Shown: piece after piece, positions 34,652 through 47,508 of the stretch
Layout: every line of letters starts with the position of its first letter
Position numbering within the stretch: position 1 is the first letter of the stretch
DNA from: Escherichia phage CMS-2020a
Direction: 5' to 3' (one strand)
Length of the DNA stretch: 64,000 bases
Sequence record: CP053388.1
Translations under genes and position numbers: made by a program
The notes under the pieces: model-generated
The model's input: the letters and a program-made list of their open reading frames with translations, nothing else
What the model was told of the DNA's origin: nothing
Databases searched by the model: none

Positions 34652-34930
34652 ATGAGTGAAAAGAAAACAACTTACTGTCAGGTAGCATTGTCTGATAAGG
34701 CCAATGACAAACTTGGAAAGTTTCAAGTGAAACTAAAAGAAAAAAATATCAAAATGTCTAAGGCTGAAGTCATAAATACCATTCTGGAACAATTGACAAT
34801 GGCCGACTTTGACAAGGTTATATCTTCTGTCGGGGCTTCCGCTAAGACTCGTGAGAAAATCATGCGTATCTATGAGAACTCTAATATGACAAAGGAAGAT
34901 CTCGAAACGCTATTAAGCAGATTAAAATAA
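34652..34930 (+). CDS. hypothetical protein
   Basis: 92-aa ORF, Lys-rich. Confidence 0.45.
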   Translation: MSEKKTTYCQVALSDKANDKLGKFQVKLKEKNIKMSKAEVINTILEQLTMADFDKVISSVGASAKTREKIMRIYENSNMTKEDLETLLSRLK

Positions 34931-34956: not shown

Positions 34957-35421
34957 ATGAAGTCTCCCATACTGTTCACTTTCTGTTCTAAAACTATCAT
35001 GAAATACTCGCTTCTCCCTCTACTAACGTTACCAGTGTTGATGCTTACCGCGTGCCAATCACGCCCAATATCAATCCATGACGCCAAACCAGCACCGCAG
35101 GCCAAAGTGTTCAAGTATCAAAGCGCAGCGCCAGCTACGTTGGTGGTAATGAGAGACACAGGTTTTGTAGGAGCTGGATGTGATGCTTCCATTTTCATCA
35201 ACGGCGAAACTGTCGCAAAACTGGCTACAGGCGAAAAAGCGACTTTCCATTTAAATGCCGGAGTATTAATTGTGGGTGCATCTCTTGAAGGTGCAGGTTT
35301 ATGTGCTCTAAACCCCGCTCGTCAAGAGCGAGAAACGACTCTGAAGAATGGAGACACAAAAGCGTTCAGGGTGTTCACCAGCAATTCTGGTGACATCGAC
35401 ATTCTGCCAACAACTCTGTGA
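34957..35421 (+). CDS. putative lipoprotein
   Basis: GGGAG RBS; signal peptide with LTAC lipobox. Confidence 0.55.
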   Translation: MKSPILFTFCSKTIMKYSLLPLLTLPVLMLTACQSRPISIHDAKPAPQAKVFKYQSAAPATLVVMRDTGFVGAGCDASIFINGETVAKLATGEKATFHLNAGVLIVGASLEGAGLCALNPARQERETTLKNGDTKAFRVFTSNSGDIDILPTTL

Positions 35422-35425
35422 TGAC

Positions 35426-35950
35426 ATGACAACCAAAGATATTACCTACGGTATCCAAGCTGAACTCTGGCCGCGAGATTACACTAACGTTGAAAAACTA
35501 CTGATGTTCTGGCGCAGAGAACAAATTCCTGTAAGGGTCACTCTCGAAGATGGCCAGGCGTTTTGCATGTACGTTTATGGCCTCATGCCATCTCGTAACA
35601 AAGTTGACCTTTGCCCAGCCCCTTTTGACAAAGAAAATCGTATAAGGCTCCCACTTGAACGCATTAGTACAATTGAATCAGGTGTGGTTGACAGTATCGC
35701 TCACGATTTCAAAGGTCGACTAACAGTTCACCCTGATTATGTCGATAATCGGCCATCACGCCGCGATTTTTTTGCAATTTGCAACCAAGCCTACAAAGCA
35801 AACAAATCTATAAGGGTGTACATGGCGGATGGCCGTGAAATTGAGGGGGTGTCAGCAGGTGCAGATGCTTGTCAGGTTACACTACGTGTCGAGAACGGTA
35901 GAAAAATAGTTGTTTTGTTCGATTGGGTTGAACGAATTTTGCCTTTTTGA
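35426..35950 (+). CDS. hypothetical protein
   Basis: ORF starting MTTKDITYG after lipoprotein stop. Confidence 0.45.
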   Translation: MTTKDITYGIQAELWPRDYTNVEKLLMFWRREQIPVRVTLEDGQAFCMYVYGLMPSRNKVDLCPAPFDKENRIRLPLERISTIESGVVDSIAHDFKGRLTVHPDYVDNRPSRRDFFAICNQAYKANKSIRVYMADGREIEGVSAGADACQVTLRVENGRKIVVLFDWVERILPF

Positions 35951-35953
35951 GTT

Positions 35954-36262
35954 ATGAAATCGATATTGTTACCACCATTATTTTTACTTTGCTCAGTTGC
36001 AGCAAATGCAATGGACTATAAGCCTGTCATTCAGTCGCTGATGAATGACGTGTGCTCAACGTCTCAGAATGTATCAGTTTGCATGTATCAATTTTCGGCA
36101 GCCGTAAAAGCAGGAAAAGCGATAGGCGAGAATGTGGAACTGTGTAAGAAAGTGGCAAATGAAGAACGGGCAATGTTGGATTGCGAATCTAGCGAGTCAT
36201 CGGCACAGTTCGTTGATGCGCTATTTGACACCAATCGTAAGGCTGTAGAGTCTGTTCAATAA
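35954..36262 (+). CDS. small secreted Cys-containing protein
   Basis: N-terminal signal peptide, several Cys. Confidence 0.5.
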   Translation: MKSILLPPLFLLCSVAANAMDYKPVIQSLMNDVCSTSQNVSVCMYQFSAAVKAGKAIGENVELCKKVANEERAMLDCESSESSAQFVDALFDTNRKAVESVQ

Positions 36263-36274
36263 ATCTATAAGGTT

Positions 36275-36306
36275 AATAACCGGCTAAGTCCGGTTATTAT
36301 TTTTCA
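36275..36306 (+). terminator. rho-independent terminator
   Basis: aataaccggctaagtccggttatt followed by T-run. Confidence 0.7.
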
Positions 36307-36453
36307 CATCACTTCTTTATATCTACAAATCAAATAACCTAAATATATATAAGGTCTAAAGCCGCAATCGATTATTTATTTAGGGAACACCTTCGACGAT
36401 CTCGCTTTTATTTCTAGGACTTTCATCCCTGCAAAAAATTTTAAAAAAAACAC

Positions 36454-36481
36454 TTGCAATCTTTTTTCGTATATCGATAAT
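36454..36481 (+). promoter_or_regulatory. sigma70-type promoter candidate for 36547-37701 cassette
   Basis: TTGCAA, 16-bp spacer, GATAAT; A/T-rich upstream tract. Confidence 0.45.
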
Positions 36482-36546
36482 TGAACTCGTCGAAAGCGAA
36501 GACGCTAACGACAATAAATTTTAAATTTACATAAGGAAAAATCATC

Positions 36547-37197
36547 ATGGCTAACATTATCATTTCTAAAAAATCCATCGTTGAAGCTGCTTCCATTGTA
36601 TCCGATGAACTGCGCGAAAAAGCAGATCTGGCAACTCAAACATACAACGAACATTATAAAAATGGTACGCACACTAAAGCAGACAAAGCAAATATGCAAG
36701 CTGCGACCACTAAACTAGCTTACTTCATCAACAACGTTGTAAACGCTGTAGAAGACGAAAAATTGTGCTCTGTTTTCTACTATGCGATTAAAGCAAGCAA
36801 ACAAGCGCCAGAAGTATTTTTTCGTGATGCAATGACTAATAGTTATTCTCTGGAAAAACTGGTTTATCTGGTTAAATCAATTAAATCTGGTAAATGCATT
36901 TATTCCATCGCTGATATGTCTGGATCTCGTGTATTCGCTTTAATCGATATGATTAACGACGAGATCGACACGTTCACCAATGGCGCTGTTTTCGATTTAA
37001 TGAATGAAGCTAAAAAAGCGTGTGAAATTAAATTGGACGCTGGCTATACTCAAGCCAACCAGTTGATCAATCTTTGCGAACGTCTCGGACTTGTTGAAAA
37101 AGTCAAAGGAGCTGGGAGCGCCAAAGCTGGTACACAGCAATATCGCTTTATCAAGAATGATTTCTACAATTATTTAGCTGATGCTTTTAAAGCGTAA
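36547..37197 (+). CDS. hypothetical protein (cassette gene 1)
   Basis: 216 aa, strong RBS TAAGGAAAAA. Confidence 0.6.
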   Translation: MANIIISKKSIVEAASIVSDELREKADLATQTYNEHYKNGTHTKADKANMQAATTKLAYFINNVVNAVEDEKLCSVFYYAIKASKQAPEVFFRDAMTNSYSLEKLVYLVKSIKSGKCIYSIADMSGSRVFALIDMINDEIDTFTNGAVFDLMNEAKKACEIKLDAGYTQANQLINLCERLGLVEKVKGAGSAKAGTQQYRFIKNDFYNYLADAFKA

Positions 37198-37245
37198 TTA
37201 ATGGAATCAAGCGCCCACAATGGGCGCTTTAAAGGAGCTTTAAAG

Positions 37246-37449
37246 ATGGTCAGCTATGACAAGATCCGCGCAGAATATCGCGCAAATTATCGCGCTTATA
37301 AACTGGAATTAATCGACGATTTGATCGCGCAACGCGACCAATTAAATTTTACGTTTTCTGATTTGCTTAACAGCAAGCGAGATTGCAAGCGCAAACGTGA
37401 ATACTTACGCTTAAGCGCATTAATCGGAAAACTTCAAAATTCTATTTAA
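37246..37449 (+). CDS. hypothetical small protein (cassette gene 2)
   Basis: AAGGAG RBS, preceded by hairpin agcgcccacaatgggcgct. Confidence 0.45.
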   Translation: MVSYDKIRAEYRANYRAYKLELIDDLIAQRDQLNFTFSDLLNSKRDCKRKREYLRLSALIGKLQNSI

Positions 37450-37470
37450 TTTTTTTTAAGGAGCTTAATC

Positions 37471-37701
37471 ATGTTTGTTCTTATCGCTGGCGTTAACGTC
37501 CATAATGAATATTATGTTAATCGCATCGCTGGGATCGCTGGTTACGCTGGGCGCGTAGTCGAGCTTATAGACGAAACGACGCGCAAAATTGACTTATTGA
37601 GCGACCAGGAGCGAAAAAAAGCAGACGTGAACGACGCTGATATATTTTTAATGTTAAAAGCGTTCGTAGAAATGGGATTTAAAATCAGTTTACACAAATA
37701 A
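37471..37701 (+). CDS. hypothetical small protein (cassette gene 3)
   Basis: AAGGAG RBS; followed by terminator. Confidence 0.45.
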   Translation: MFVLIAGVNVHNEYYVNRIAGIAGYAGRVVELIDETTRKIDLLSDQERKKADVNDADIFLMLKAFVEMGFKISLHK

Positions 37702-37705
37702 AATC

Positions 37706-37731
37706 GAGCGCCCACTATGGGCGCTTTTTTC
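37706..37731 (+). terminator. rho-independent terminator
   Basis: agcgcccactatgggcgct plus TTTTTT. Confidence 0.75.
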
Positions 37732-37751
37732 GTTTCCAATACACCTACCAT

Positions 37752-37777
37752 AACGCGCCAATGATGGCGCGTTTTTA
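37752..37777 (+). terminator. second tandem terminator hairpin
   Basis: aacgcgccaatgatggcgcgttttt. Confidence 0.6.
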
Positions 37778-38317
37778 TTGTCTTTAACTCACTCCAACAA
37801 CATAAAAATAAGCGCCAAAATAACGCCATAGACGCGCTTTTATATCCTTACCAGTACATGCCCATTACTTAACACATTAACGCGCTTAAAACGCGTTATA
37901 TTGCGCTATAGAGTATGGTTAATCATTGGCTTTTAGTCTTGCTATGTGATCCGCGCTTATTTGTCGGTGCGGATCGGTATTTTGTTTTGTTCTGTATCCG
38001 CTCGCGTATTATGTGCGCGTGATTTTTCACTTAATCACACCACTTAATCACGTATGTGATTATGCTACGAAAGAAATCTGGATGTCTCAGGTGACGAAAG
38101 TCATCATAATTTTCCCCGCTCACCTGTCCGACAACCGCTGGTTGGATTCCACCAGCTTCCCGATGTTTTTTCTACACAAAGGCGAATGCAGCCGTTTCCC
38201 GAAAAAATCCTGGCCGTTCCCCCGTCGGCTCATGAATACGTTCCTCGCCGCTTCTGAAAATTTCCCTGCGGCAGCTGGTGGCTATAGAGAAAGGGCCGTT
38301 TCTGGCCCTCTTCTCAG

Positions 38318-40971: not shown

Positions 40972-40993
40972 AAACATGTTGTTTTCTTGATGG
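40972..40993. promoter_or_regulatory. motif A
   Basis: aaacatgttgttttcttgatgg. Confidence 0.55.
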
Positions 40994-41317
40994 TGTTATT
41001 ATCGCAATAACACACAGGCGGAAAAGGATTTTATTCCGGTGAATGTGGTTTTGGCAGTGAGTTTTCAGGTTCAGTACCGAGTACACTTTTTACATTATTC
41101 TGATTTAGTGGCCGAAAGTGGCTGGTGGCAGAGTAATCCTCTCCCCAAAAACCTACTGAAATCGATTGTGCCCCGTTGGCTGTCTGGCACAATTACGCTG
41201 TAGCTGGGCATTCAGAGGGAATCCAGCGGTAAGCAAGTCCGCCTACGTGAGCGCCTCTCTTCTTCCCGCACATTACAGGTGGGTAGCCGCAACTCTCCCT
41301 CTCGCTATACCGGTACG

Positions 41318-41475
41318 CCACCGTTCCTGAACCGGCATCGAGCCTTCTCCCGAAATCCACACAGGCAACTCGACCGTTTCTCTGAAAACCTCCAGCCGTT
41401 CCCCGAAGGCAACCCAGCCGTTTCTGTAGCGGGATGCAGCCTTTTCCCTGTATGGACCGAAGGCTGACCGTAGGG
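41318..41475. repeat. iteron-like array (6-7 degenerate ~22-bp direct repeats)
   Basis: Units cagccgtt(c/t)c..gaa at 41318, 41340, 41371, 41394, 41415, 41437. Confidence 0.6.
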
Positions 41476-42054
41476 GTGTTACGGGGGGATAAAATCAGGA
41501 GTTGAATAAATACGAAAAAGGAGGCGACACCTCTCCTTCCCTCCCCACTTATACATACCTGGCTTCTTCGCTATACATGTTGTGTTTTCTTCGTGTTTTA
41601 TCTGTCTCAACCTCTCTATAGGCGTTAATGCTCACTCCTTCCAGAACGTTCTATACGGCGACTATTTCTGTTGGTGAATTGGGTGTGTTGTTTTCTCTGT
41701 CGGTGTATGTGGTTTCGTTCGTTTTGCGGTGGTTCTTCTAGGGGGTGTTCTCGTCGTTTTGGTGATTGTTCTTCTCCATGTATGGAGTAATGGCAGGTGG
41801 GCGATTCCTTTCGTTGTTGTGTTTGAGTTGTTTGTCTGGAGTGCGTGAAGGGCTTTTGTAGTTATTCGTGTATTGGGTAATGGCGTTTCCCGTGATTGTT
41901 ATGTTTCGTGTCTTTTGGGATTGAGAGAATCCTTGTGGTTACAGGCTTCGTTGGGGTTTCAGTGATTCTGGTGTTTCTTCGCTGTTTGGGTAATGGCCTG
42001 TCGTGGGTATCGCGCGTATGAATGTTTTCGGATTGCCTGTGAAAGTTAGGTTGG

Positions 42055-42130
42055 TTGTCCGGTAGCCTGGGGAGAAGAGGTGGGTCTTTTCGGTAGCCTG
42101 CCATAAAGAGGTTGGTTGTTTTTGGGAATG
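42055..42130. repeat. ~75-bp GT-rich repeat, copy 2
   Basis: Paralogous to 38883-38955. Confidence 0.6.
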
Positions 42131-47082: not shown

Positions 47083-47472
47083 CTACATCACGGGACAATC
47101 ATCAAACTCGCCACTTCTTGCGTCGTTGATAATGTGAGTGATCACACCAAACACGGCATTGCTGCCCGTGCATCCATCGTCATCCTTTGGCAATGCTTCC
47201 TTCTTACCGGTTCTTAAATCCTCCAGATGCTGACGTGGGTACTTCCGGTATCTTTTTACGCGATATTCCCCATCCAGAGCGCATACAAGCAGAGAACCAT
47301 CAACCGGGGTAAGTGAGGAATCGACCACCAGCAATGCACCCTGTAATATTCCCTCACGATGATGACTATCAGCTGCCCTCATGAAGTAGGTCGCTGAAGG
47401 ATGTCTAATTATCTGCTGATCAAGAGAAATACGGCTCTCAACATAATCCGCCGCAGGAGAAGGGAAGCCCAT
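47083..47472 (-). CDS. UmuD'-like S24 peptidase-family protein (N-terminally pre-truncated, HumD-like)
   Basis: GFPSPAADYVESRISLDQQIIRHPSATYF aligns with UmuD from its autocleavage-site region onward; no umuC. Confidence 0.85.
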   Translation of the reverse strand: MGFPSPAADYVESRISLDQQIIRHPSATYFMRAADSHHREGILQGALLVVDSSLTPVDGSLLVCALDGEYRVKRYRKYPRQHLEDLRTGKKEALPKDDDGCTGSNAVFGVITHIINDARSGEFDDCPVM

Positions 47473-47488
47473 AATACTCGCCTCTTAA

Positions 47489-47508
47489 TACTGTATACAC
47501 ATACAGTA
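47489..47508. promoter_or_regulatory. LexA (SOS) box overlapping the UmuD'-like promoter
   Basis: tactgtatacacatacagta = CTGT-N8-ACAG; -35 TTCAAA and -10 TATACT on minus strand. Confidence 0.85.

Follow-up and report, generated by a model that had tools for sequence, protein, structure and literature searches.

The 64,000-nucleotide (nt) stretch of DNA analyzed here (hereafter, the window; sequence record CP053388.1) is part of an Escherichia coli phage-plasmid of the SSU5/pHCM2/pMT1 type, and it carries on its plus strand an operon of three small genes, g1, g2, and g3, which is the subject of this report. The genes g1 (36547–37197), g2 (37246–37449), and g3 (37471–37701) encode 216, 67, and 76 amino acids (aa), and their ribosome-binding sites (RBSs) read AAGGA, AGGAG, and AGGAG, respectively. 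A sigma-70-type promoter precedes them on the same strand, with TTGCAA (36454–36459) and GATAAT (36476–36481) separated by 16 nt and an A-tract in front. One hairpin occurs twice, after g1 (AAGCGCCCACAATGGGCGCTT, 37209–37229, plus strand) and again after g3 (GAGCGCCCACTATGGGCGCTT, 37706–37726, plus strand), and further G+C-rich hairpins lie at 37752–37773, around 37811–37835, and at 37878–37898. An earlier reading of this DNA from its letters alone (hereafter, the sequence-only reading) had described these features, and all were found where it had placed them; only its length for g2, 68 aa, needs correction, as it counts the stop codon. The operon has a GC content of 31–42% and is A+T-rich relative to its flanks.

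Taken simply as a match to the consensus, the promoter does not rise above chance: the window holds six promoter-like sites, and shuffled sequences hold 8.0 ± 3.1. It is credible because its −35 and −10 hexamers are conserved in relatives. CTTG of the −35 element and TCGATAAT of the −10 element are conserved in the main lineages, and in the remote lineages CTTG is retained together with a −10-like hexamer. The window also has more terminator-like sites than expected (10 vs 3.9 ± 2.3), and the hairpin core GCGCCCA-NNN-TGGGCGC is present exactly twice in the 64 kb, compared to an expectation of 0.19. No Rfam covariance model reached its gathering score between 35900 and 38900. These data support g1–g2–g3 as one real transcription unit with a conserved promoter of its own.

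Over this region, the window matches the Escherichia phage-plasmids CMS-2020a (96%), PhiR41_1 (95%), and Cyrano (92%), Salmonella phage SSU5 (81%), and 777 plasmid records, including pHCM2 of Salmonella Typhi and pMT-1 of Yersinia pestis. Plasmid p4_0.2 (110,452 bp), which is 99.6% identical over the region, served as a stand-in for the parts of the element beyond the window; the hairpin core is found nowhere else on this complete 110-kb plasmid. We surveyed 97 loci for the contents of the operon, for the gene upstream of it, and for hairpins, and 98 loci for downstream repeats. Four remote loci are identified below by number: L099 (Xenorhabdus), L100 (Providencia), L101 (Klebsiella), and L102. 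The genes and elements of the block follow one another rightward in a conserved order: a helicase gene, a 92-aa gene, an FljA-family gene, g1, a slot for small cargo genes, terminators, and an array of direct repeats.

The first gene of the operon is a core gene, present at a fixed position in essentially every enterobacterial element of the SSU5 type. A tblastn search found g1 in 815 plasmid records, and the counts of g1 and of the large terminase, the latter taken at 80% identity or more, are 346 and 345 in Klebsiella, 217 and 208 in Escherichia, 91 and 93 in Enterobacter, 62 and 62 in Yersinia, and 49 and 50 in Salmonella; Acinetobacter relatives of the terminase occur without g1. Homologs of g1 are 53–97% identical, are all annotated as ‘hypothetical’, and reside on contigs of ∼100–112 kb. 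A profile search of 1.84 billion proteins recovered only 24 representatives of the family, all on contigs of that size or on fragments, and the most distant relatives (20–43% identical) are on ∼102–110 kb contigs of Xenorhabdus, Providencia, and Klebsiella. The sequence-only reading had proposed a presence/absence comparison across relatives, and the outcome separates the genes: g1 is in essentially all of them, and g2 and g3 are variable (53 and 49 of the 97 loci, respectively), in keeping with an accessory role for these two.

None of the three proteins had been credited with a recognizable domain, which holds at the level of sequence. Searches of Pfam, NCBIfam, PADLOC, and PDB sequences returned nothing for g1 beyond its own family, also with a broadened family profile, and no significant match for g2 or g3 (one PADLOC match, to g2, had E = 0.027). 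Sequence-based remote homology for g1, sought among the 1.84 billion proteins, PDB sequences, and Pfam, likewise led back to its own family, and no remote homologs were found in a viral contig collection. The structure model of g1 departs from that description. AlphaFold2 (predicted local distance difference test [pLDDT] 79, predicted template modeling score [pTM] 0.66) places five helices in an N-terminal bundle, followed by H-b-H-H-b-b (H, helix; b, strand), which is the topology of a winged helix with its recognition helix. Two residues at the beginning of the predicted recognition helix, T168 and Q169, do not vary anywhere in the family. Judged by this model, g1 is a winged-helix DNA-binding protein from a family without a characterized member. 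Comparison with initiator families (Rep_3/RepA, lambda O, P4 alpha) gave no Pfam, PDB, or BFVD match beyond a generic winged helix, sequence homology to the Rep, P4 alpha, or TubR families was not found, and no TubZ or ParA partner adjoins the gene. The element's plasmid initiator is a RepB-family protein ∼40 kb from g1; as RepB and its own iterons lie elsewhere, we ruled out g1 as the plasmid initiator.

Published transcriptomes of a Cyrano lysogen show whether the operon is expressed from a resident element. The Cyrano homologs of g1 and g3 are CYRAN_113 (96% identical to g1) and CYRAN_112; CYRAN_43, 723-fold above background in strain LF82, was considered as the homolog of g1 and ruled out. 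In RNA sequencing of LF82 grown in LB, CYRAN_113 and CYRAN_112 have normalized values of 5.9 and 5.0, where the floor is 5.0 and the prophage median 9.8 (PMC9928086, S1 Table). Both stay near the floor in all conditions apart from a modest rise after 6 hr in macrophages, which is common to the other silent phage genes CYRAN_75, CYRAN_90, and CYRAN_119 (PMC9928086). The FljA-like gene CYRAN_114 is expressed in the lysogen, at 18 in LB and at log2 values of 7–8 in the other conditions (PMC9928086). A screen for morons by the authors of that study, at 5-fold or more above background, lists 13 Cyrano genes, with CYRAN_113 and CYRAN_112 absent (PMC9928086). In this one strain, which carries a relative with a 96% identical g1, expression from the repressed prophage was thus not found.

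The gene immediately upstream of g1 (35426–35950, plus strand; start as annotated in a relative, with the mechanical open reading frame [ORF] beginning at 35348) is a member of the FljA family, ‘repressor of phase-1 flagellin’. It matches PF03614 over profile positions 1–170 of 170 (E = 2.5e-84; 281.7 bits, cut-off 24) and is 78% identical to CYRAN_114, and the gene before g1 in relatives is annotated as ‘transcriptional regulator’ or ‘repressor of phase-1 flagellin’. Nearly all of the 97 loci have an FljA-family gene before g1, and most exceptions fall at contig ends. The association extends to remote loci L099 and L102, where g1 is ∼36–39% identical to that of the window and a PF03614 gene again precedes it (the match is weak in L102), and L100 has a same-sized unassigned gene in this position. 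A 2006 paper by Yamamoto and Kutsukake reportedly deals with FljA-type repression of fliC mRNA translation. Repressors of this type are reported to prevent the translation of fliC mRNA (PMC2652032).

Between this gene and g1 lies a spacer of ∼285 nt with invariant blocks, whereas the coding DNA is ∼80% identical, and most of these blocks persist in the remote lineages. The first, TAATAACCGGCTAAGTCCGGTTATTA with a T-run behind it (36274–36299, plus strand), is an intrinsic terminator that serves the upstream gene; it was found in a terminator scan and is invariant in 12 relatives. Three conserved A/T-rich boxes follow upstream of the promoter: box A (AAATATATAAGG, 36343–36355), box B (ATTTATTTAGGGAACACCTTCGA; ATTTATTTAGGnAACACCTTCGA, 36374–36396), and box C (TTTATTTCTAGGACTTT; TTTATTTCTArGACTTT, 36407–36423). 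All three are conserved in every lineage, including Xenorhabdus and Providencia. A leader stem-loop, SL1 (GTCG aa AGCG aaga CGCT aa CGAC, 36489–36512, plus strand), lies at the predicted 5′ end of the mRNA or close to it and is predicted by RNA folding, with 93% of cells paired compared to 13–43% in slid controls. Its closing pair is AU in 16 sequences, GC in five, and unpaired in none, its innermost pair varies (GC, GU, AC, AU), and L102 keeps the loop with the stem swapped for CTGGC/GCCAG. Boxes B and C and SL1 are unique on the whole 110-kb element.

The window and some relatives have, in addition, a 102-aa ORF between the fljA-like gene and g1 (35954–36262, plus strand), with a signal-peptide-like N-terminus and no Pfam match. 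The insertion includes a separate copy of the ATCTATAAGG...terminator block, and the presence of the ORF in only some relatives points to a second small insertion slot.

The leader and the FljA-family gene vary together. We compared 32 E. coli-type loci in which g1 is at least 94% identical, and found four FljA clusters, each with a leader variant of its own. Mean identities over 272 between-type and 163 within-type pairs are 67.6% and 97.9% for the leader, 75.8% and 98.3% for the N-terminal part of fljA, 79.1% and 98.7% for its C-terminal part, 85.3% and 95.9% for the boxes and promoter, and 95.6% and 95.9% for g1. Sliding profiles of four pairs resolve two separate divergent patches, the N-terminal to middle part of fljA and the leader, ∼400 nt apart, and the stretch between them is mostly 80–100% identical. 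Because the leader type tracks the FljA type rather than g1, we suggest, by analogy with fliC repression, that the FljA-like protein may be the cognate repressor of g1, a proposal whose chances we judge to be even.

The cargo slot begins with the hairpin after g1. Both hairpin copies belong to a 31-nt direct repeat (37200–37230 and 37697–37727, 87% identical) that contains AGCGCCCA-NNN-TGGGCGCT. Copy 1, the left border, is followed by a weak U-tract, TTTAAAGGAG, that runs into the RBS of g2, and has the form of an attenuated terminator; copy 2, the right border, is followed by TTTTTTCG and would be an effective one. A bidirectional back-up hairpin, AACGCGCCA-NNNN-TGGCGCGTT (37752–37773), with a conserved stem and a variable loop, comes after it. 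The three genes described by the sequence-only reading are those of the window, and this arrangement is only one among several states of the slot: g2 and g3 occur together in 22 of the 97 loci, g2 alone in 31, a g3-type gene alone in 27, and a divergent g2-like ORF in five (L092–L096), and 11 loci have an empty slot in which g1 is followed by a single hairpin; one slot lies at contig ends. A 75-aa paralog of g3 is present in pMT-1 and pHCM2, and in L032 and L038 it forms a tandem with g3, g1-hp-g3′-hp-g3-hp (hp, hairpin).

The number of hairpins tracks the occupancy of the slot, with one after g1 and one after the cargo in occupied slots, and a further copy of hairpin 1 takes the position of the back-up hairpin in L092–L095. 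All 183 copies that we identified lie inside the slot. In 181 of them the stem is unbroken, also at a g1 DNA identity of only 62%, and the loop is CTA in 146 and its exact inverse, TAG, in 20. The TAG loop (e.g., L001, L006, and L093, compared to 37708–37724 in the window) is the product expected from intrastrand template switching in a palindrome. The first copy in an occupied slot has the tail TTTAAAGG, TAGTTTTA, or similar, a weak U-tract running into the next RBS, and the last copy has TTTTTTCG or similar (TTTTTTCG itself in 67 of 94 loci). The last copy thus has the features of a rho-independent terminator, and the upstream copies of occupied slots have no full U-tract, suggesting that they allow partial read-through. 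This supports the role that the sequence-only reading gave the repeated hairpin, as punctuation both inside the unit and at its end. From the placement of these identical repeats, we infer that they mediate the gain, loss, and duplication of promoterless ‘RBS-ORF-hairpin’ units. Within the main group, the hairpin sequence is more strictly conserved than a terminator needs, for which concerted evolution among the copies is one possible cause. We considered the palindrome as an operator for g1 and ruled this out: remote lineages keep the recognition helix and have ordinary terminators of other sequence at the hairpin site, so the hairpin is fundamentally a terminator.

The families of g2 and g3 are confined to SSU5-type elements. 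The label ‘MIT family metal ion transporter (CorA)’ that PHROG attaches to the g2 family (phrog_6145) traces to the annotation of SSU5 (SSU5_119); it is implausible for a 67-aa protein and looks like a propagated mis-annotation. Inspection of its sequence predicts a coiled coil in g2, and the structure model of g3 is poor (pLDDT 57). Homologs of g3 have one to three copies of a 9-nt unit encoding IAG repeats (37520–37550), and these differences in number suggest slippage. For both proteins, the comparison supports a role as accessory proteins co-expressed with g1, and nothing beyond that; it speaks neither for nor against a part of g2 or g3 in anti-defense or exclusion.

Downstream, the convergent spacer of ∼590 nt ends in a block conserved in all lineages, which holds an array of direct repeats with the consensus ∼CAGCCGTTTCCCGAAAA (CAGCCGTTTCCCGAA) at 38191–38303 (plus strand; copies at 38191, 38213, 38247, and 38295). 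Of the 98 loci, 96 carry, downstream of g1, at least three repeats within 130 nt. In the Xenorhabdus, Providencia, and Klebsiella (L101) lineages, the repeats are at +400 to +650 despite an unrelated convergent neighbor; the array stays syntenic in remote lineages though the terminator sequence, the cargo, and the convergent gene differ. Its conserved syntenic partners are g1, the helicase gene, and the 92-aa gene. The same repeat recurs at 41373–41447 (plus strand) in a second array, where its four copies are spaced exactly 22 nt apart. These two are the only such clusters on the whole element, and they are distinct from the RepB iterons. Synteny makes the first array a candidate target of g1, and the second may be linked to g1 through the shared repeat.

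Two other features of this non-coding DNA deserve mention. The second array sits in a gene-free stretch of ∼1.07 kb (40978–42045), the right half of which (∼41560–42100) is strongly G+T-rich on the plus strand, with degenerate 28–31-nt repeats that include GGGTAATGGC; the stretch may represent an origin, a decayed gene, or a non-coding RNA. In the convergent spacer, at 38030–38062, CACTTAATCAC occurs twice in direct orientation, and after it comes an operator-like palindrome, TAATCACGTATGTGATTA, which is present in all five E. coli-type loci among the first 12 examined.

On the basis of these comparisons, we propose the following mechanism. The FljA-like protein, whose gene is expressed in lysogeny, would act as the specific repressor of g1. 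By analogy with FljA on fliC mRNA, it would recognize the 5′ leader of g1, from SL1 through the RBS, block translation, and destabilize the message; leader and repressor would diversify jointly, as an immunity-like specificity pair, and g1 would stay constant. Once repression is lifted, the strong sigma-70 promoter, with its A-tract and three upstream boxes, would drive g1. The first hairpin copy, which has no full U-tract, would let part of the transcription read through into the slot genes, and the last copy with its full U-tract, together with the back-up hairpin, would end the unit. The anatomy of the operon makes this scheme of derepression, read-through, and final termination probable. 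The slot holds zero to two promoterless ‘RBS-small ORF-hairpin’ units (g2, g3, or paralogs), and recombination between the identical hairpin repeats, or slippage during replication, would account for their gain, loss, and duplication. Finally, g1 would bind the CAGCCGTTTCCCGAA arrays, one ∼0.5–1 kb downstream and one further on, and so start a DNA transaction of the lytic phase. Activation of a lytic origin is the likeliest form of this last step and a transcriptional switch its main alternative, and we regard the step itself as possible but doubtful. The account as a whole, in which a core g1 operon silent in lysogeny is joined to an FljA-like repressor, a hairpin-bounded slot, and a lytic DNA transaction, is one that we hold tentatively, at slightly less than an even chance.

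Several observations weigh against this account. As a fold, the winged helix is very widespread, and the linker of the g1 model (residues 120–127) is of low confidence. The silence of the operon rests on gene-level counts from one strain in one study, and silencing of the H-NS type could explain the missing transcripts of so A+T-rich an operon without FljA. Linkage alone might account for the match of leader type with FljA type, as both lie within ∼700 nt. Moreover, the canonical SL1 also accompanies at least seven FljA clusters, 53–81% identical, in other genera, so there is no strict code. SL1 is itself a short palindrome with few independent compensatory events and a folding z-score of −1.6, and a DNA operator or a generic 5′ stabilizer would fit it just as well. 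The leader of g1 was also compared with that of E. coli fliC, and the similarity is marginal: equal scores were reached by 3 of 500 and by 11 of 500 mononucleotide shuffles. Lastly, no observation links g1 in particular to the arrays; the helicase and the 92-aa protein are equally syntenic.

The same facts can be read with g1 as a transcription factor of the lysis-lysogeny decision (Cro-like, antirepressor-like, or a late activator) that acts on promoters, perhaps through its own upstream boxes, the arrays serving another protein. In favor of this, the winged helix is a usual feature of regulators, the promoter of g1 is preceded by three private conserved boxes suggestive of autoregulation, the operon is silent in lysogeny, and the adjacent type-specific repressor recalls the secondary immunity regions of P22 and P1. 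Against it, no regulon is visible, as the element has no further copy of box B or box C; nor does g1 resemble any known family of phage regulators. We see this as a possibility short of being probable.

It is also conceivable that the FljA-like protein has nothing to do with g1 and acts on the flagellin mRNA of the host, that g1 is silenced by H-NS, the main repressor, or the 92-aa protein, and that the type match reflects linkage. PF03614 proteins are known only as fliC repressors, the fljA-like gene adjoins the leader in any case, and both the A+T-richness of the operon and the pairing of the canonical leader with many FljA clusters would fit. Klebsiella and Y. pestis, however, are non-motile hosts in which FljA-family genes are found on hundreds of plasmids; this argues that flagellin is probably not the native target, and the pair is conserved there in 346 and 62 records, respectively. 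Furthermore, PF03614 persists upstream of g1 in L099 and L102, the leader diverges more between types than the flanking non-coding DNA and yet is 98% conserved within them, and no LexA box is present at the g1 promoter. We consider this reading as a whole unlikely.

A third possibility is an addiction or abortive-infection pair made up of g1 and the FljA-like protein, similar to type V toxin-antitoxin systems, in which g1 would be harmful and the FljA-like antitoxin would block its mRNA. A constitutively expressed repressor does adjoin a strongly promoted target that is silent, several toxin-antitoxin modules are known from phage-plasmids of this group, and diversifying specificity pairs are typical of such systems; even so, a highly conserved DNA-binding protein in strict synteny with a helicase and a repeat array is unlike a mobile toxin-antitoxin cassette, and defense and toxin-antitoxin libraries gave no match, making this reading very unlikely. 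Last, the view of the sequence-only reading that the three genes look like a self-contained moron, possibly a toxin-antitoxin, exclusion, or anti-defense unit, taken here to mean an autonomous unit that is expressed from the resident element and benefits the element or its host, can claim the predicted promoter and terminator at either end, the A+T-richness, the small domainless proteins, the variable presence of g2 and g3, and the PHROG category of the g2 family (‘moron, auxiliary metabolic gene and host takeover’), but is highly improbable, because g1 is a strictly syntenic core gene rather than a sporadic one, an FljA-family gene and a conserved repeat array frame the operon, g2 and g3 occur independently of each other and g1 without either in 11 loci, contrary to a toxin-antitoxin set, Pfam and PADLOC gave no match, and g1 and g3 at the floor in a lysogen are not a unit expressed from the prophage. 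That reading had named uniformly conserved core genes with a known replication function as the contrary case; the conservation applies to g1, a known replication function does not. The original observation is confirmed, and its interpretation partly supported.

Comparison with known systems helps to place the operon under the mechanism that we propose. Like FljA–fliC of Salmonella phase variation, it has a full-length PF03614 member, a protein of ∼175 aa that would, by analogy, silence one strongly promoted target through its 5′ leader. Unlike in that system, the proposed target is a DNA-binding protein of a phage-plasmid rather than flagellin, and the two genes are neighbors in cis on one strand, also in non-motile hosts, with a leader only marginally similar to that of fliC. 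The secondary immunity regions of temperate phages, immI of P22 (Mnt/Arc/Ant) and immI of P1 (c4 RNA/icd/ant), offer a second parallel, in that a type-specific repressor keeps a lytic-switch gene off, and repressor and site co-diversify as the downstream gene stays conserved. There is no relationship of sequence or fold, however: the repressor here is of an RNA-binding family, and the controlled protein is a predicted winged helix without similarity to Ant-type antirepressors. Phage morons share the promoter and terminator, the A+T-richness, and the small, variably present genes, but not the core, syntenic, lysogeny-silent g1 or the dependence of promoterless g2 and g3 on read-through.

The slot resembles an integron array in its promoterless small ORFs, each ended by the same palindrome and served by one upstream promoter, and in the variable number and order of its units. 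It differs in that the palindrome is a perfect terminator hairpin of 19–21 nt instead of an imperfect attC of 55–140 nt, and only two cargo families are seen; homologous recombination or slippage between repeats suffices to explain it. A published account of integrons in phages does not deal with this locus. We found no attC with R and L boxes and no adjacent IntI at the slot, no integrase in the g1 block (the sole one annotated on p4_0.2 is ∼50 kb distant), and no correspondence of the operon proteins to known anti-phage defense systems among the PADLOC protein models.

Two further genes of the element bear on its regulation. The 92-aa gene that follows the helicase (34652–34930) is conserved in remote loci L100–L102 (26–40% identical) and was not detected in the Xenorhabdus locus L099; its Cyrano homolog, CYRAN_117, is 12-fold above background in the lysogen. 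It has no Pfam assignment and is another candidate regulator of the block. Elsewhere, a perfect match to the LexA-box consensus, CTGTATACACATACAG, is found at 47491–47506, ∼20 nt upstream of a gene for a 129-aa S24 peptidase (47083–47472, minus strand) whose Cyrano homolog, CYRAN_98, is highly expressed. This box is a likely SOS input to induction.

Among clinical Klebsiella, E. coli, Enterobacter, Salmonella Typhi, and Yersinia pestis, phage-plasmids of the SSU5/pHCM2/pMT1 type are very widespread; PLSDB lists ∼800 complete plasmids with g1, and these elements also spread resistance genes. In the literature that could be searched, we found no description of how they control lysis-lysogeny or lytic replication, and, to our knowledge, the module has so far gone uncharacterized there. 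The locus provides a concrete entry point: a silent core DNA-binding protein, an FljA-type repressor with ‘immunity types’, private cis elements, and a repeat array. The most far-reaching interpretation, which we consider speculative and improbable in its entirety, is that FljA-family proteins are natively type-specific, immunity-like post-transcriptional repressors of phage-plasmids that hold g1 off through its mRNA leader, that g1 recognizes a hitherto unnoticed pair of iteron arrays serving as the lytic origin, that Salmonella FljA is a domesticated offshoot, and that the slot is a terminator-mediated cassette system for early accessory genes. If true, the FljA family would gain a function outside flagellar phase variation. 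If the operon is only an ordinary early operon, the gains would be smaller, and the labels ‘moron’ and ‘metal transporter’ should go. The hairpin-bounded slot would still be a tidy example of terminator repeats mediating the turnover of gene cassettes.

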